64,000 nucleotides of DNA from a virus. The translations under genes and the position numbers were made by a program. Positions 1 through 48,407 of the stretch are shown in pieces. Each line of letters begins with the position of its first letter. Position 1 is the first letter of the stretch. Below the pieces are notes generated by a model. That model had not been told where the DNA came from, searched no databases, and saw only the letters and a list, made by a program, of their open reading frames with translations. The stretch covers positions 18,181-82,180 of the IMG/VR virus record IMGVR_UViG_3300033146_005950, one strand, 5' to 3'.

Positions 1-259
1 AATTTTAATTTTCTGGAGATTTTTACTTGTTAAAATCTACAGAACTTGTTTTAGCTTTAGCTGAAACAATACAATAAAATAAAATAAAACTAAAATTATT
101 TAAGACTTATAAATTTTAATTTAAAATATTTCAATTCATATTTAAAATACAATTGTAGATAGTTCCAAATAAAATTGGAACTGAACCATTTTTTAAATCA
201 TCATACAGATGCTAAAAAATTCTAAAGAATTTGCTTCTCTATATATAATATAATAAAGG
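1..259 (+). repeat. Structured non-coding element, copy 1 (inverted relative to 47798..48163); may extend beyond the window start
   Basis: 6..69 is the exact reverse complement of 48095..48158. 148..195 is the exact reverse complement of 47884..47931. 212..238 matches 47820..47846 except in a 2-nt hairpin loop. Each block folds into hairpins. Confidence 0.9.
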
Positions 260-489
260 TAGGAGAGCACATCCACCATCGCTTTTTAGCTATTATTAAT
301 CAACACATTAACATTTAAGAAATTTCTTGAAAACTTTTCTAAGCGATTTTCATTTTTTTCTTAAGTCTTCATAAAAATAACTAATATTTGGTAATTTGAA
401 ATTAAAAATTTTTTAGTTTCAAAAAATAAATATAATTTAAATAAGATAAAAAAAAAATCAATAATTAAAAACATAGGACTTCGCAGATT

Positions 490-5287: not shown

Positions 5288-5470
5288 TTGGTAACTCCTT
5301 TGTTTTGTTGTTTTGTTATATTAATAATATATAACAAATTTTAAGTTAAATATGCTTTTTTATAAAGAAAAAGTGTAACTTATTATAAATCAATAAGTTA
5401 CAAAATGAAATTTTTTTGTTTTATTTTTCTGTTTTTTATAAAGTATTAAAAATCAATGGTTTATAAGTTT
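5285..5470 (-). promoter_or_regulatory. Duplicated early-type promoter/leader region, copy 1
   Basis: ~185-bp near-identical direct repeat of 25404..25593. Contains RBS AAGGAG, a TATATT -10-like box and the 11-7-11 palindrome TGTAACTTATT-ATAAATC-AATAAGTTACA (5374..5402). Confidence 0.85.
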
Positions 5471-15136: not shown

Positions 15137-18100
15137 TTAATTAATCTCGTATTCAATTGTAATATGAATATATGAAACAGTACCAGAGACAGCCGTAACT
15201 TCTAACCAAACATATTCATTTTGATTTATTGCAATTCCACTTTTTGTTACTTCAGCCCCGTTTAAACCTGATGAAACTAATTGCCCATTTACAATTGTGT
15301 TTATTGCAGTCCCGACTGAAGTTCCAGATTTAATATTAAAAGTAACTGAAGAACCGTCTTTAACAACGGCTTGAACTGTATTTACTTTTAACGCTTTTGT
15401 TGTGAACCAAATGGGTATTAAATCTGTATCAACTGGAGCAGGTAAATAAATTGCTTTACTTAATAAATTTTTAGATTTTTCTAATTTATTATTTAATTCT
15501 GTATTTAAATCTGTTTGGTTCGTTATTATTCCGGTTATCCCACCCCAAGCAATGTTAGAAGATGCCCCGGGTGAAAGTACTTTTTTAATTGTAATTGTGT
15601 TTGCTCCTGAAAGCGCTTGTATTTGAGCTGTACCACGGGTGCGCATTAAATGAACTTCAATAACATCATTTACTTGTAAATTTTTAATAATTGATGAAGA
15701 AGCGGAAGACCCAAAATTTGCCTGTCTCATATATAATTCGCCATAAGTACCCGAAACATCATTTGAATTTATTACTAATTTAGATGCAGCTTCAGATCTT
15801 ACATTTCCACTGTTTCCTTTTATTGACACATTATAAGTAATTTCATATTGCCCCGCTTCTTGAATTTCAATCGTTCCCGCTGAAATTACTGAATACGCAG
15901 AACAAGTTGCAGATACGGTATTAAATGGAACTTTTTGCCAAGTCCCGTCTAATGCTAAATCAGTATTATTATATAAACTTAAAACTTTAGGGTCTTCTTT
16001 AGAATCATCAACATATTTTTTAGTCGCGGGTTCATAATCAGATGCCGGAGTAAACGAAGCTGTATTATCTAATTCTAATACATTATTTTTATTTGCCTTT
16101 AAATTTAATGCAGTTTGTGTATCATTTGAAATTGGTTTATTTAAATCTGAAGTATTATCAACATTGCCCAAACCAACATCAGATTTATTAACATTATGAG
16201 GATTATTTGTGTTTGAAATATGACTTTGAATATTTGTGTTTTTAGGTTCATAATCAGAATCGTGATTATGATTTCCTTCTGCAACTTCTCCACTATTATT
16301 TCCAAAATTTTTATTGAAAGCGGTGTTTTCTGTGAAGTCATCTTTCTTTCCAGCTAATTCATTTTGTAAATCTGTTTGATTAGTAATATCCCCGATTATA
16401 TCACCCCAAGTAATATTCTCAGCTGTGCCGCCTGAAATTGAAGGAATTAATATTTTTTTAATTGTAATTGAAGTTCCGTTCCCAGATGCTTTTACTGTAT
16501 TACTTCCATCTACCACTTTTGCTCTTATTCTTAACATATCACTGTCATCTAAGTCAAAAATATAGCTGTATGATGCAACTGCTCCATATTGAGTTTTCTT
16601 TATAAATAAAGTATTTTCAGTACCCGGGATATTAGTGTAATTTTTTTGTAGCATTATTTTTACAGAAGTATCAACAGTCCCCGCTGAGGCAACTAAATCA
16701 ATATGAAAATTTACTTCATATTGTCCTGCATTATCTAAAGTTATTTCACCGTTGCTATTTGTGTAACCACCACCTGTAATATCAATAACATTAAATGGTA
16801 CTGTTTGATAGTTCATAGATGAAATTGTAAAATCATTAGTGTTCCTTGCTGCAAAAACATCCGGGTCTTTTAATTTATCGTCAACATATTTTTTAGTTGC
16901 AGGTTCATAATCAGCCGCCGGAACAAACGAAGTTGTGTTATTTAATTCTAATACATTATTTTTATCTGCTTTATTATTTAAAAGATTTGCGACTGCGTTG
17001 CTAACAGGTTTATTTAAATCTGAAGTATTATCAACATTGCCCAAACCAACGTCAGATTTATTAACATTATGAGGATTATTTGTGTTTGAAATATGACTTT
17101 GAATATTTGAATTAGCAGGTTCGTAAACTCCATTATGATTATGATTTCCTTCTGCAACTGTTGAAGCAGCCGTACCAAAGTCTTTATTAAAAGCACTGTT
17201 TTCGGCAAAGTCATCTTTCTTTCCATCTAATTCATTTTGTAAATCGGTCTGATTAGAAATGTTTCCAACAATTGTACCCCAAGTTGTATTACCATTGCTT
17301 TCAATAACACCTGCTGCAACGATCTTTTTAAGATTTAACGAAACACCTTTTACAGTCGTATTAATTGAAGAAGTACCAACCGTTCTACTTGCGATTACCT
17401 TTAATACATCATTTTCGTTTAAATTTAATATTGCGGTTGCAGTACCGTGTGTACCATAATTTTTTAGTCTACAATATATTGTTGATTGAGTTCCATTCAC
17501 ATCTGAGCCATTTAATTGTAATTTAGTTACGACAGTGCTTCTTGAACTTCCACTGGCTACTTCAAAATCAGCGTGATAAATTATTTCATATTGTCCATCT
17601 TTTAATATTGTAACTTCACCATTATTATTATGAGAATAAGAATCATCTATTATATCAACCGTGTTTAACGGGATTGTTTGAAAACTACTTGAGATAGAAA
17701 ATGCATTATTGTTATGCGCAAAATATACAGACGGCTCATCAACAGAATCATCAACATATTTTTTAGTCGCAGGTTCATAATCAGCATCTGGAGTAAATGA
17801 AGTTGTATTATCTAATTCTAATACATTTGTTTTGTCTGCTTTTAAATTTAACGCAGTTTGTGTATCATTTGAAATTGGTTTATCTAAGTCTGAAGTATTA
17901 TTTACTGCTCCTAAACCTATTTGGCTTTTTGTCACTACGTGCGGGTTTGTTTGATTGCTAATATGACTTTGAATATTTGAATTGACAGGTTCATAAACAG
18001 TATCGTGATTATGGTTCCCCATTGAAACAGTGTTAGAAGTAGTTCCAAAGTCTTTGTTGAAGGCTGTTTTTTCTGTGAAGTCATCTTTCTTTCCATCTAA

Positions 18101-18475
18101 TTCATTTTGTAAATCTGTCTGATTGGTAATGTTGCCTGATATATTGCCCCAAGCAACTTCTTCGCTCAAATCAATTTCACCATCACCATCTTCATCATAA
18201 ACCGAACCGCCAACATTTGATTTATGATAAAAATTAAATGTGTTTTGTATTATTGCAATATAAACATCTGCACTTGTAGATGTTGGGTTATATGTGTTTA
18301 GTTCATTAGTAATTAAAGAAACATCTTTATTACCACTAAAATTTATTAAAATGTCATCTGCAAATTTTCTTGTGTATAATAATCTATTTATATTTGTAGT
18401 TGAACCCGAAGTATAAAATACTCCATCTAAATAAAGGTTTGAACCTGAAATATAAATTTGATCTACTCTTTCCAT
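15137..18475 (-). CDS. Modular tail-fibre-like protein (three repeated stalk plus C1q/BclA-like head modules)
   Basis: WGxIxGxIxNQTDLQNEL occurs four times; NHNH...SHISN..NPH.V.KS.VGL..V.NTSD and DYEPATKKYVDD three times each, each set followed by a divergent beta-sandwich. Confidence 0.8.
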   Translation of the reverse strand: MERVDQIYISGSNLYLDGVFYTSGSTTNINRLLYTRKFADDILINFSGNKDVSLITNELNTYNPTSTSADVYIAIIQNTFNFYHKSNVGGSVYDEDGDGEIDLSEEVAWGNISGNITNQTDLQNELDGKKDDFTEKTAFNKDFGTTSNTVSMGNHNHDTVYEPVNSNIQSHISNQTNPHVVTKSQIGLGAVNNTSDLDKPISNDTQTALNLKADKTNVLELDNTTSFTPDADYEPATKKYVDDSVDEPSVYFAHNNNAFSISSSFQTIPLNTVDIIDDSYSHNNNGEVTILKDGQYEIIYHADFEVASGSSRSTVVTKLQLNGSDVNGTQSTIYCRLKNYGTHGTATAILNLNENDVLKVIASRTVGTSSINTTVKGVSLNLKKIVAAGVIESNGNTTWGTIVGNISNQTDLQNELDGKKDDFAENSAFNKDFGTAASTVAEGNHNHNGVYEPANSNIQSHISNTNNPHNVNKSDVGLGNVDNTSDLNKPVSNAVANLLNNKADKNNVLELNNTTSFVPAADYEPATKKYVDDKLKDPDVFAARNTNDFTISSMNYQTVPFNVIDITGGGYTNSNGEITLDNAGQYEVNFHIDLVASAGTVDTSVKIMLQKNYTNIPGTENTLFIKKTQYGAVASYSYIFDLDDSDMLRIRAKVVDGSNTVKASGNGTSITIKKILIPSISGGTAENITWGDIIGDITNQTDLQNELAGKKDDFTENTAFNKNFGNNSGEVAEGNHNHDSDYEPKNTNIQSHISNTNNPHNVNKSDVGLGNVDNTSDLNKPISNDTQTALNLKANKNNVLELDNTASFTPASDYEPATKKYVDDSKEDPKVLSLYNNTDLALDGTWQKVPFNTVSATCSAYSVISAGTIEIQEAGQYEITYNVSIKGNSGNVRSEAASKLVINSNDVSGTYGELYMRQANFGSSASSSIIKNLQVNDVIEVHLMRTRGTAQIQALSGANTITIKKVLSPGASSNIAWGGITGIITNQTDLNTELNNKLEKSKNLLSKAIYLPAPVDTDLIPIWFTTKALKVNTVQAVVKDGSSVTFNIKSGTSVGTAINTIVNGQLVSSGLNGAEVTKSGIAINQNEYVWLEVTAVSGTVSYIHITIEYEIN

Positions 18476-18522
18476 TCATAGCCTTTGAAAAAATTAAAAT
18501 TTACTAATTATATTTATTATTA

Positions 18523-18554
18523 AAAATGGGGGAATTTTAATTCCCCCCCATTTT
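18523..18554 (-). terminator. Intrinsic terminator
   Basis: AAAATGGGGGAATT-TT-AATTCCCCCCCATTTT hairpin flanked by A/T tracts. Confidence 0.8.
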
Positions 18555-18697
18555 ATTTTAAAAATTAGTGAACTAATGCAACTCTAAAGAGTTGCATCTT
18601 CCTGTTTCATAGTCTAATTCTTACAGCTGGATTCAATGAATCCAGCGCAGAGGAATTAAACTCCGCAGGCTTAAAATCCCTGAGTCCCTCAGGTACT
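18552..18697 (-). ncRNA. TnpB omega-RNA (reRNA)-like scaffold plus ~16-nt 3' guide
   Basis: Minus strand AGTACCTGAGGGACTCAGGGATTTTAAGCCTGCGGAG...ATGAAACAGGAAG-hairpin-TAGTTCAC matches the typical tnpB 3'-end scaffold, including potential GCCTG/CAGG pairing. Boundaries are approximate. Confidence 0.7.
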
Positions 18698-18771
18698 ATT
18701 AATATTTATTATTTGTAATAATTGTTAGTTCACAATATTATGTCATTTAGAAGCCTTAAAAGGCTTAGTTT
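18568..18771 (-). mobile_element. Non-autonomous IS200/IS605-family element (no tnpA/tnpB) carrying an omega-RNA-like right end
   Basis: Minus strand: TTTAT|AAACT-AAGCCTT-TT-AAGGCTT left-end hairpin, and GAAG-ATGCAACTCT-TT-AGAGTTGCAT-TAGTTCAC right-end hairpin with a TCAC terminus. Confidence 0.8.
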
Positions 18772-18800
18772 ATAAAAAGATTTTAATTAATTAAATTTCA

Positions 18801-20597
18801 CTAATCAATATCAAGTATTAAAGTAGCAGCAGGGTTATTGCTCCAATTGCTTAATGCAATTCTAATTGTGTCACCCGCAGCAACTGACAAACCATTAAAC
18901 TCAAATACAGTTGTGTCATCTGAACCACCGCCTGTATTTGTTGAAACGGCATCAGCGGTAGTCGTTGAAATAATTTCACTTGTATTATTTTTAAATAATT
19001 TCAAAGTTGAATTACTTGCTCCACCATCCATTTTAACTGAGATTTTATGAATTGTTCCTGCAAATGCCATACTCCAACCAGGATTTATTACTGAGCCGTC
19101 TGAAGTTCCGCCTGCCCAAATTTCTTTATTTGCACCAAGTGCTTCATTTCTTGCAAATAAATATGTAATTTTAGCACCTGCTGTTGAAGCATCAACATAA
19201 GCTTTAACAGATTGCTGTGTAGGAACTGCTGTATCAGAATCTGAAGTAAAATCATCTTCATCAATAACTTCAAAACCTGAATCTGTTAAATTGCCATTTG
19301 AGTCTAAAGCAGCAAGATTACCATCCGTTGCTCCGGTGACTTTATCAGCTTTAGAATCAAAATTAGGTTTATTTTGAATATAAGCATCTGAACTATTATC
19401 AGTCTCATCCCAATCAGCTTGTACATTTACTTCAGCACCATCAGCAATTCCATTTAATTTTGTTAACTGAGCATCGGTAACATAATTTTTATCTGTAACT
19501 GTTGTAATATCACCAGTATTTAATACAACAACACCAGTCTTTCCATTGACAGATGCAACTTGGTCTGTATTATCAATTTTATCCCAATTACTTCCATTAT
19601 AAACAGCCCAATCTCCGATTTCATAAACTGTACCTGAAATTGTACCCGCTGTATCAATTACATAATAATCTCCATTTTCAGGTGAAGCAGGATAAGAGCC
19701 GCCTGAGGCATCTAATGTTCCTTTATATTGCAAACCGCCTAAAATTGTATCAGGCAATTGAGAAGTTGGAACTTTACCGTCACCACCTAATGTTGCGACT
19801 CCATTTGCAGATGCTTTTTCTGAAGTATCAATTTTATCAGCAAGTTCTGAAGTAATTTGTGAAGCAGTCCAAATATCAGAAGTACTTGAACCAGAGTCAT
19901 TTATTTTTGCTCCACTATCAACTGCGTCTCCATCTGAATCTAATACAGTAATGTTACCAGTTGTTCCTGCCGCATCTCTTACAGCATAATAAGCAGGCAA
20001 TTCCCCACCTAATTTATCTGCATCTTCAGCACCGTCAACTTTTCCATTATCATTTGTGTCATAGACAGATTTTAACATATCTCCGTTACCAGAAGCAGCG
20101 TACGAATCATCAACATATTTTTTAGTCGCAGGTTCATAATCAGCATCTGGAGTAAATGAAGTTGTATTATCTAATTCTAATACATTTGTTTTGTCTGCTT
20201 TTAATGCAAGACCATTTGTAAGGTCAGTGTTTGAAGCATAGTAAGAAGCGTCATTTCCTCCTAAATTATATGCGTTTTCTGCATTATCAACAACACCAGT
20301 TTCATTACTGTCATATTGATTTATTGTCATATCAGAATTATGCCACTCATTATAAGTAGTTTGTACCCAACCTGTATAAGTGTCATTATCTGAAGAAGGC
20401 GTAATTGTTGTGCTCGAACCGTCGTCAAGCACCATCGTTACAACACCACTTCCACTTTCATAATCGCTAATTATATCATTAGCATATTCTCTTGTAAAAA
20501 TAAAAACATCTAATGATTCTGTGTCTCCATTTGTATAACTATGGCCGTCTAATGTTACGCTACCAGCAAATGAAAGACTAATCGCTTTTGTACCCAT
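18801..20597 (-). CDS. Modular tail-fibre/whisker-like protein
   Basis: Typical fibre motifs (DMLKSVYDTNDNG, GVATLGGDGKVPTSQLP, VASVNGKTGVV, NVQADWDETD); shares modules with the 15137 and 29111 genes. Confidence 0.8.
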   Translation of the reverse strand: MGTKAISLSFAGSVTLDGHSYTNGDTESLDVFIFTREYANDIISDYESGSGVVTMVLDDGSSTTITPSSDNDTYTGWVQTTYNEWHNSDMTINQYDSNETGVVDNAENAYNLGGNDASYYASNTDLTNGLALKADKTNVLELDNTTSFTPDADYEPATKKYVDDSYAASGNGDMLKSVYDTNDNGKVDGAEDADKLGGELPAYYAVRDAAGTTGNITVLDSDGDAVDSGAKINDSGSSTSDIWTASQITSELADKIDTSEKASANGVATLGGDGKVPTSQLPDTILGGLQYKGTLDASGGSYPASPENGDYYVIDTAGTISGTVYEIGDWAVYNGSNWDKIDNTDQVASVNGKTGVVVLNTGDITTVTDKNYVTDAQLTKLNGIADGAEVNVQADWDETDNSSDAYIQNKPNFDSKADKVTGATDGNLAALDSNGNLTDSGFEVIDEDDFTSDSDTAVPTQQSVKAYVDASTAGAKITYLFARNEALGANKEIWAGGTSDGSVINPGWSMAFAGTIHKISVKMDGGASNSTLKLFKNNTSEIISTTTADAVSTNTGGGSDDTTVFEFNGLSVAAGDTIRIALSNWSNNPAATLILDID

Positions 20598-25406: not shown

Positions 25407-25593
25407 TTTGATAACTCCTTTGTTTTGTTTTTGTTTTGTTATATTAATAATATATAACAAATATTGAGTTAAATATGCTTTTTTATAAAGAAAAAGTGTA
25501 ACTTATTAAAAATCAATAAGTTACAAAATGAAATTTTTTTACTTTATTTTTGTGTTTTTTATAAAGTATTAAAAATCAATGGTTTATAAGTTT
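25404..25593 (-). promoter_or_regulatory. Duplicated early-type promoter/leader region, copy 2
   Basis: Near-identical to 5285..5470, including the palindrome TGTAACTTATT-AAAAATC-AATAAGTTACA. Confidence 0.85.
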
Positions 25594-32059: not shown

Positions 32060-32122
32060 CCCTCATATTAAAAAATACATCTTATTTGATAGTATTTATT
32101 TTTAAGGGATAACGTGGTTTAT

Positions 32123-32168
32123 AAACTAAGCCGTAAAAATACAACTCTTTAGAGTTGTGTTAGTTCAC
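32123..32168 (+). mobile_element. 46-bp ends-only derivative of the IS200/IS605-like element
   Basis: TTTAT|AAACTAAGCC (same as the left end at 18771) joined via GTAAAA to ATACAACTCT-TT-AGAGTTGTGT-TAGTTCAC (right-end hairpin and terminus). Confidence 0.75.
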
Positions 32169-47797: not shown

Positions 47798-48163
47798 CCT
47801 TTATTATATTATATTATATAGAAGCAAATTCTACAGAATTTTTTAGGAAACTGTAAGGATATTTTAATATCCTGAATGTTGAATAAAAAATGGTTCAGTT
47901 CCAATTTTATTTGGAACTATCTACAATTGTAAAAACTATTATAAATAAATTTTAAAAACTGTAGTTTATTTTAGTCAATTTTAATATTTTAAAGAACTGT
48001 AGTTTATTTTAATCAAATTTAGTTTATTTTAATATTTTAATCAAATTTAGTTTATTTTAATATTTTAATTAAATTTAGTTTATTTTATTATTGTTTGTTT
48101 CAGCTAAAGCTAAAACAAGTTCTGTAGATTTTAACAAGTAAAAATCTCCAGAAAATTATAATT
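47798..48163 (-). repeat. Structured non-coding element, copy 2, with an internal iteron-like tandem array
   Basis: Three hairpin blocks shared with 1..259; five TAGTTTATTTTA units in ~47960..48087. Confidence 0.9.
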
Positions 48164-48407
48164 TTTTATTTGATTTAAGTCTTTAAGTACTTTTATTAAA
48201 AATTTGAAATTTAAAAATTTAAGTATTTTAAAAATTTCAAAAATAAAGTAATTTCGATTTTTTAAACTTGTTTTAAAAATCTTGTTTTTAACTTGTTAAA
48301 AACAACAAATACAATTTTAATCTAATTGCTCGGTTACGGAATGAATAACAAAAAATAAATAGAAACAATATATTAAGTTAAAAATAATTAAAAATTATAA
48401 GGAAACA

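Follow-up and report, generated by a model that had tools for sequence, protein, structure and literature searches.

A TnpB-less IS200/IS605 derivative with a complete omega-RNA scaffold behind a tail-fibre-like gene of a putatively T4-like phage

The insertion sequence (IS) IS608 of Helicobacter pylori, of the IS200/IS605 family, has subterminal hairpins, a right end TCAA with GAAT 5' of the hairpin, and a left end of the form TTAC ... AAAG. In bacteria, palindrome-associated transposable elements (PATEs) 'often encode' omega-RNAs that would need TnpB in trans, for example in Geobacillus stearothermophilus (main-text passages of the Meers 2023 preprint, PMC10055086). IS200/IS605 elements also occur in phages, as the elements ISCaje1-4 of the T4-like Campylobacter phages CP220 and CPt10 are described in the text passages of Timms 2010 (PMC2853527), and Seg and Mob are named as free-standing homing endonucleases of T-even phages in passages of PMC13565253. 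Here we analysed a stretch of 64,000 nucleotides, the window, which comprises positions 18,181-82,180 of IMG/VR record IMGVR_UViG_3300033146_005950 (record G000, contig C1). It contains a 204-nt element without any open reading frame (ORF) on the minus strand (18568-18771; plain coordinates are those of the window). Elements of its kind are already known from bacteria; this one adds an example that lies in a phage and has its own promoter-like motif. A limited literature search returned no description of a protein-less omega-RNA element in a phage, or of one with its own phage promoter.

A first-pass annotation of the window had proposed a protein-free IS200/IS605 derivative with a TnpB omega-RNA scaffold at this position. 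The comparisons that follow bear this out and leave us in very little doubt that the element derives from an IS608-like insertion sequence of the IS200/IS605 family and, though without TnpB, has a complete omega-RNA scaffold; judged from the alignments, tnpB, tnpA and the left-end hairpin have been lost. The right-end word occurred at 12 loci when IMG/VR was scanned for it. Seven of them (L086 and L088-L093) have a gene's 3' end upstream of the word, two are ORF-less copies (L008 and L087), two are solo copies (L084 and L034), and L085 was a chance match. In all five loci that reach far enough, an ORF of 414-439 residues stops 5 nt short of the shared right end, and all five ORFs scored above the Pfam cut-offs for OrfB_IS605 (PF01385) and for the Cas12f1-like TNB domain (PF07282). 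The TnpB translation of L091 holds the motifs GIDFG, QNENIKG and DRDIHSAKNI, which we take to carry the D, E and D residues of RuvC. The same locus encodes a Y1 TnpA of 132 residues (L091:10925-11323; PF01797, 131 bits versus a cut-off of 23), and the sequence upstream of tnpB in L093 reads like this tnpA, the Pfam confirmation being limited to L091. A tnpB with the same right end, whose absence from related genomes would have counted against the first-pass annotation, is present on other phage contigs, two of which bear apparent tnpA-tnpB units, and these units have both their left-end and their right-end sequences in common with the focal element. Between the left end and tnpA, L091 (10774-10944, plus strand) also has a 56-residue ORF without a Pfam match, found at the same position in L093; it may be the ribbon-helix-helix protein 'Arc' of IS605 elements named in the available part of a 2026 preprint.

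The focal core aligns to the tnpB 3' ends from its first base (TACC, 18695) through the terminal TTCAC (18568). Upstream of the core, the orphans have an A/T-rich promoter-like stretch and the other copies have coding sequence. Because the seed of our first covariance model, R1, included the focal copy, we built a second model, R2, from tnpB-embedded scaffolds only. R1 scored the focal element at 134 bits; R2 matched it over its full length (model positions 1-127 of 127) with 107.4 bits and an E value of 1.3e-20, and scored the other orphans at 113 (L100), 109 (L008) and 94 bits (L099). In tblastn, TnpB residues 375-401 matched at the focal core only, and the relic reading frame there resembles the C-termini of several TnpB subfamilies (60-75% identity over 14-21 residues). 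The TnpB family is common in metagenomes, with 2174 proteins at E <= 1e-30 among 8000 candidates scored; its best relative in a named phage has 41% identity. In the L089 contigs, a second, divergent scaffold (67 bits) lies about 2 kb from the first (L089 3179-3304, minus strand, equal to G006:32490-32615; also G003:26732-26857), as if two distinct members of the family were neighbours there.

In Rfam 15, the whole window had no match at the gathering score, and 18400-18900 had only weak sub-threshold matches of at most 23 bits. This shows only that Rfam 15 has no model reaching the omega-RNA clade of the focal element. The best of these matches (18556-18699, minus strand; 23 bits versus a gathering score of 115, E 0.09) was to Ref70, an Enterococcus small RNA that has in common with the focal element a 5' hairpin whose loop is GGGAC and, in its 3' part, ...CAC-UAAUU...; Ref70 might itself be derived from an IS200/IS605 right end. 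Several other seeds were set aside. The seed CCTGAGGGACTCAGGG found four loci in viral contigs, three of them chance matches in GC-rich coding sequence. The 15-mer TTTATAAACTAAGCC found 75 loci, of which L008, L034 and L038 were inspected individually; a few of the other 72 showed unrelated gene similarity to the G000 contig in tblastx. A genome-contig seed led to three contigs of metagenome-assembled genomes, none of them matched by R1. The 21-nt P3 palindrome occurred at 40 loci in metagenome contigs, where it belongs to an unrelated conserved coding sequence, and none of the 40 was matched by R2.

All the parts that the first-pass annotation had listed, namely TTTAT, a hairpin, the motif AATAAATA, the core, 16 nt and a terminator, lie where it had placed them, and its statement that there is no coding capacity between the ends is confirmed by the absence of any ORF of at least 30 residues on either strand of 18508-18800. 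The features of the element are, in their order on the minus strand:

18772-18776, minus strand: TTTAT, the insertion target and presumed target-adjacent motif (TAM) for a TnpB using the element's guide; the same pentamer stands at other copies.
18734-18771, minus strand: left-end remnant AAACTAAGCC-TTTT-AAGGCTT-CTAAATGACATAATATT, from pairwise alignment with the left end of L008.
18703-18735, minus strand: promoter-like stretch TTGTGA (18730-18735), 16 nt, AATAAT, overlapping AATAAATA, from a consensus scan.
18568-18695, minus strand: omega-RNA scaffold and right end, 128 nt, relic of the last ~40 tnpB codons, from covariance models, alignments, covariation and tblastn.
18576-18597, minus strand: right-end subterminal hairpin ATGCAACTCT-TT-AGAGTTGCAT with a 10-bp stem, from the sequence.
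18552-18567, minus strand: would-be guide, the 16 nt TAATTTTTAAAATAAA flanking the right end, by position only.
18522-18551, minus strand: intrinsic terminator, a stem (18528-18547) followed by a T-run, from a terminator scan.

TTTAT stands directly 5' of AAACTAAGCC in the focal copy, in L008, in L034 and in both solo copies of the contig, and likewise 5' of the left end in the G009 orphan. Beyond it, the flanks are unrelated between insertions and direct repeats are absent, and comparison of independent insertions fixed the boundaries directly after TTTAT and directly after the terminal TTCAC. The structured core spans GTACC (18696/18695) to TTAGTTCAC, which ends at 18568. GGAAG (18598-18602) lies just 5' of the right-end hairpin, and the 10-bp stem is followed by a tail of 8 nt, TAGTTCAC, with the TCAC terminus at 18568-18571; counted with a 9-bp stem, as in other copies, the tail is 10 nt long (ATTAGTTCAC). 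The right-end hairpin is common to all members of the family, with G-C to A-U and wobble changes, and hairpin and tail are shared with nine other loci whose flanks diverge immediately afterwards.

At the left end of L008, the arms AAGCC and AAGGCTT enclose GTAAAAAT-ACAACTCTTTAGAGTTGT-GTATAT, so that an inner hairpin, identical to the right-end hairpin, sits within an outer stem AAGCC ... AAGGCTT; the left ends of L091 and L093 follow the same plan. In the focal copy, TTTT replaces those 30-odd bases, and the arms AAGCCTT-TT-AAGGCTT form a hairpin at 18751-18766. The subterminal left-end hairpin is thus present in L008, L091, L093 and G009 and absent from the focal copy, in which, as read from the alignment, the inner hairpin and the preceding GTAAAAAT are deleted and the outer arms have closed into the hairpin at 18751-18766. 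The first-pass annotation had taken the latter for a transposase-type left-end hairpin; it is only a remnant. In IS200/IS605 transposition, TnpA binds one hairpin per end. Because the left one is deleted, the focal copy is a truncated derivative, not an intact two-ended element; TnpA could probably not excise it, and it is probably immobile. It is consequently probably not a mobile miniature inverted-repeat transposable element (MITE); L008, which has both ends, should still be mobilisable. We also considered the internal GTGAACTAAC as an inverted right-end copy marking an invertible segment, and rejected this since it overlaps the -35-like hexamer and aligns with GGGAACTAAA of L008.

AATAAATA, which the annotation had called a late-type motif, is at most putatively late, yet it does stand before structural genes. 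The contig has 58 copies, 15 of which are sense-strand copies no more than 60 nt upstream of a gene call, against about 1.6 expected (75 crude gene calls, whose 60-nt upstream space makes up 2.7% of strand positions). Genes preceded by it include those for the portal and a tail-spike-like protein and both flanking tail-fibre-like genes, and its extended form is aaaAATAAATA. None of the 33 contig copies of TATAAATA, which we take to be the T4 consensus, lies within 60 nt upstream of a gene call. In the focal copy, AATAAATA (18703-18710) ends 6 nt before the G of GTACC, in L008 5 nt before it, and the consensus scan found the sigma-70-like pair TTGTGA-16-AATAAT overlapping it. The terminator scan called four sites, against 0.2 expected in shuffles, with no call in the interval from the upstream stop codon to the scaffold and a strong terminator past the 16-nt flank; since no terminator precedes the scaffold, the latter would also belong to the 3' untranslated region (UTR) of the tail-fibre-like mRNA. 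The terminator at 18522-18551 probably ended the upstream tail-fibre-like gene originally. The enrichment of AATAAATA, its presence in two independent insertions and the placement of the terminator make transcription of the focal scaffold plausible.

The 128-nt core has a minimum free energy of -51 kcal/mol (z = -6.1; none of 200 shuffles folds equally well), and for the 178-nt stretch including the terminator z is -6.7. RNAalifold on a MAFFT alignment of nine sequences predicted 37 pairs, six of them with compensatory changes. In 11 copies aligned to R1, a fit that favours the structure, 93.8% of the cells are paired, against 32-41% in slid controls, and both partners have changed in 20 of the 37 pairs, against 3-6 in the slid controls; none of 500 shuffles reached either value. 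The 5' hairpin, for instance, reads CCUGAG/CUCAGG in the focal copy, CCUAUG/CGUAGG in tnpB copies and CCGUAG/CUACGG in G009, and in the third helix nearly every position differs between subfamilies with pairing kept in each.

A full scaffold with neither an upstream ORF nor a TnpB domain in the record occurs in four records (G000, G001, G009 and G010), all of them fragments that are 5-43% complete. In G009, a compact orphan of about 175 nt stands immediately after a tRNA-Asp gene (L099, G009:C1:48300-49900, at 837-1088); hardly anything separates its left-end hairpin from the scaffold, and AATAAATA is absent from it.

The record is 82,180 bases long, with a CheckV completeness of 43% and a G+C content of 28%. 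It encodes a tail sheath, a portal, a gp23-type major head protein (27-28% identity to cyanophage gp23), a DNA polymerase, a helicase and a ligase, and we take it to be a distant T4-like myovirus. The element lies inside a 325-nt gap that separates two minus-strand genes:

18801-20597, minus strand: upstream gene, 598 residues, similar to the PHROGs minor tail protein (E 1.7e-20), from the ORF list.
15137-18475, minus strand: downstream gene, 1112 residues, similar to PHROGs tail and tail-fibre families.

The stop codon of the upstream gene lies 24 nt from TTTAT, and the downstream gene has a AATAAATA of its own at 18511-18518. In blastn, the intergenic region matched none of 50,697 phage records, and a tRNA scan of the window found no tRNAs. 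Searched in IMG/VR, the 598-residue tail gene gave a 35-residue repeat match only and the major head protein gave no relatives; because of this, there was no relative to examine for synteny. This phage has genes or modules in common with L008 and L038. G001/L008 was considered as a syntenic record and dismissed, having only short modules in common.

The contig holds further short copies of the element. The first-pass annotation had envisaged a search for tnpA, tnpB and additional copies; the copies were found, and tnpA and tnpB were not seen in the 82 kb. The two solo copies are:

32118-32168, plus strand: solo copy, TTTAT and a 46-nt element, from the sequence; R1 37.6 and R2 39.5 bits over 54-74 nt.
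G000:C1:7737-7787, plus strand, outside the window: second 46-nt solo copy, from the sequence.

They read TTTAT-AAACTAAGCC-GTAAAAAT-hairpin-(A/G)TTAGTTCAC, that is, both ends of the focal element with the ~150 nt between them absent, and score far below the full-length copies. They presumably arose when the left and right hairpins, which are identical, recombined. A terminator-promoter cassette unrelated to any IS was considered for them and rejected: because their left-end 5' part and right-end tail match real elements, they are IS-derived. On the opposite strand, the solo copies present a hairpin and a T-run, then TTGTAT-N15-TATAAA shortly upstream of a minus-strand gene start, and the left end of L008 is placed alike before a gene; such a transposon remnant may have been put to new use, serving as terminator and promoter in one cassette. 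A degenerate fourth site lies just upstream of the window (G000:C1:17334-17770, minus strand, equal to L004 about 1335-1771). It consists of TTTATAAACTCAGCA, ~400 nt without an ORF or scaffold match, and AGAGTTGTGTTAGTTCAC directly before a gene's ribosome-binding site, within a stretch of more than 1 kb that has no ORF above 66 residues. R2 gave it 24 bits, for the tail only, and Rfam gave nothing at E <= 0.1 in contig positions 16000-19000. A separate ~136-nt repeat, 93-98% identical, occurs at 5293-5428 and 25413-25551 of the window, at G000:C1:2391-2521 and at 331-466 of L098 (G001). Each copy begins with CAT and CTCCTTT, which on the opposite strand read as a start codon and a ribosome-binding site. 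The repeat, with a hairpin inside it, resembles a regulatory cassette that several genes have upstream in common. Further short intergenic modules with 83-92% identity are common to the contig and G001 (window 1-369 and 48065-48341; L098 10696-11243).

The explanation that we put first is use of the scaffold in trans as a guide, in favour of which we count the plausible transcription, the apparent constraint on the scaffold and the recurrence of ORF-less copies in four records. The placement of the insertion is seen directly: 3' of TTTAT, after the stop codon of the tail-fibre-like gene and before that gene's terminator. The scaffold would be transcribed from the abutting AATAAATA-type phage promoter or within the tail-fibre-like mRNA, as its 3' UTR. 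Ending at the terminator, the transcript would consist of the scaffold and a guide of 16 nt. TnpB would have to come from elsewhere, be it the 57% of the phage genome that was not sampled, another phage in the same cell or an IS of the host. Loaded with this RNA, it would cut TTTAT followed by TAATTTTTAAAATAAA, which is the same site in a genome without the insertion. In recombination-proficient T4-like phages, the cut would be repaired from the element-bearing genome, so that the element and the neighbouring tail-fibre genes would be retained or spread. Such trans use is the published expectation for PATEs encoding omega-RNAs, as worded in the main text of the Meers 2023 preprint (PMC10055086), and a figure legend in Zedaveinyte 2023 gives equal activity with the omega-RNA on a separate plasmid. 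We favour this chain as a whole, including the use in trans, only tentatively, and stop just short of expecting it to be correct.

Several results weigh against it. The 82 kb (~43% of the genome) yielded neither domains nor remnants of TnpB or TnpA beyond the focal relic, and no TnpB domain was seen in the orphan records G001, G009 and G010 or, in all, in any of the five records searched. The empty site that the first-pass annotation had thought worth seeking had no match in metagenome contigs. The major head protein was not found in any of the five records bearing tnpB, a weak negative, and these contigs have no demonstrable relationship to the phage. As a sequence, the guide is an A/T run of low complexity. 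Because the left-end hairpin is lost, the canonical use, re-cutting of the donor site after excision, cannot arise in this genome. The fold itself also permits another account. The focal and L008 scaffolds differ at 3 of 128 positions, all in the terminal hairpin and with pairing kept (the first 97 positions are identical), against 7 of 75 aligned positions and a length difference of ~160 nt upstream (Fisher p = 0.04), where the alignment used for this contrast is partly uncertain. The contrast speaks for constraint on the scaffold; with scaffolds so alike, though, recency alone could explain the intact fold. Orphan scaffolds are more stable than tnpB-embedded ones (-51 and -49 versus -33 to -42.5 kcal/mol). 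Because the relic frame is 60-75% identical to TnpB C-termini, the stronger stems may have been inherited from an unsampled tnpB variant and not selected after the loss of the ORF, and given this similarity we do not uphold the idea that they evolved after that loss.

The alternative that survives best is a neutral relic: a PATE or MITE that inserted behind the tail-fibre-like gene, was later stripped of its left-end hairpin and has not yet had time to decay. RNA made from it would be inconsequential. The deleted hairpin, the lack of tnpA and tnpB in the 82 kb and the possibly inherited stem strength all fit this, as do the clearly dead derivatives in the same contig, two solo copies and one degenerate site; and since the focal scaffold is 98% identical to that of L008, little time has passed. 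What it leaves unaccounted for is that the two independent insertions each have a phage-type promoter motif right next to the scaffold, and that ORF-less copies keeping the scaffold occur in three further records, with stems that differ and yet remain paired. We regard such a relic as a serious possibility, if one that we do not on the whole expect to be true.

It is quite improbable, in our judgement, that the RNA is used in another way, as a decoy for the TnpB of a host or rival, as a guide for a nuclease-dead TldR-type repressor, or as a 3' UTR that stabilises the tail-fibre-like mRNA. The position in the 3' UTR of a structural gene ahead of a terminator and the strong fold that has been kept would suit such roles, and TldR-type guide RNAs on mobile DNA are reported in the accessible text of 10.1101/2023.11.30.569447. 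Against them, the 82 kb showed no gene for a TldR or a TnpB-like protein and the guide has no second match in the contig, where neither an exact nor a TTTAT-flanked copy was seen and only low-complexity near-matches occur; the present data do not distinguish the three ideas from one another. An origin outside transposons, as an independent phage small RNA or cis-regulatory structure resembling IS ends by chance, would agree with the lack of a curated Rfam family at the gathering score and has practically no credibility beside the full-length match to the model from tnpB 3' ends, the two end sequences common to tnpA-tnpB units and the relic TnpB reading frame.

Returning to use in trans, one may think further of phage-borne, promoter-driven, nuclease-less omega-RNA genes as 'guide-only' homing drives. 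Such a gene would make its guide late in infection, borrow TnpB from a host IS or a co-infecting phage and have rivals cut that have no insertion beside their tail-fibre genes, so that the rival either receives copies of the element and the adjacent host-range genes or is excluded. We consider this generalisation rather unlikely; were it true, the ORF-less copies that keep the scaffold on four phage records would reflect selection and not decay. Guide RNAs apart from their nuclease show the modularity of RNA-guided systems, and if the phage copy is used, a virus could aim another's nuclease at its competitors for ~200 bases, beside its host-range genes. Even if the element is a relic, the set collected here is a defined family in which cross-talk between TnpB and omega-RNA can be tested on phage genomes, spanning apparent tnpA-tnpB units, tnpB-only units, two-ended orphans, an immobilised orphan and 46-nt solo copies, and a working covariance model has been gained for a clade beyond the reach of Rfam.

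How, then, does the element stand to the systems named at the outset? The L091 and L093 units have the same right end and scaffold architecture and the left-end design of the family, an inner hairpin inside an outer stem; unlike the focal element, they carry TnpB, with the scaffold inside the tnpB frame (tnpB ORFs of 414-439 residues). The geometry of IS608 is likewise that of the focal family: subterminal hairpins and insertion 3' of a short T-rich word without duplication. Terminus and guide word differ, the family having TCAC and GAAG 5' of the right-end hairpin where IS608 has TCAA and GAAT. Family copies with a 9-bp right-end stem end 10 nt past it, the focal copy 8 nt past its 10-bp stem. 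The left end of the full-length relatives is TTAC ... AAAG, as in IS608, and that of the L008 subfamily TTAT ... AAAA. The two belong to different sequence families, and the focal copy has neither genes nor a left-end hairpin. ISCaje1-4, likened here by description, are also IS200/IS605 residents of large T4-like myoviruses and lie at different sites in related phages; unlike the focal element, they carry tnpB, one of them also tnpA, and the passages of Timms 2010 (PMC2853527) mention no protein-less omega-RNA copy. The likeness to Seg and Mob, as the passages of PMC13565253 present them, is one of analogy and not of membership: in both cases a co-infecting genome without the element is, or as we propose would be, cut and repaired from the carrier with co-conversion of neighbours, but Seg and Mob are self-contained and recognise DNA by protein, whereas here there would be an RNA guide only, with a borrowed nuclease. 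To the PATEs, compared from main-text passages (Meers 2023 preprint, PMC10055086), the element corresponds in having no protein gene, IS200/IS605 ends and an omega-RNA that could work only with a TnpB made elsewhere. It differs from them in residing in a phage of virulent, T4-like type, in having lost its left-end hairpin, so that it is not two-ended, and in the phage-type promoter motif that abuts its scaffold.

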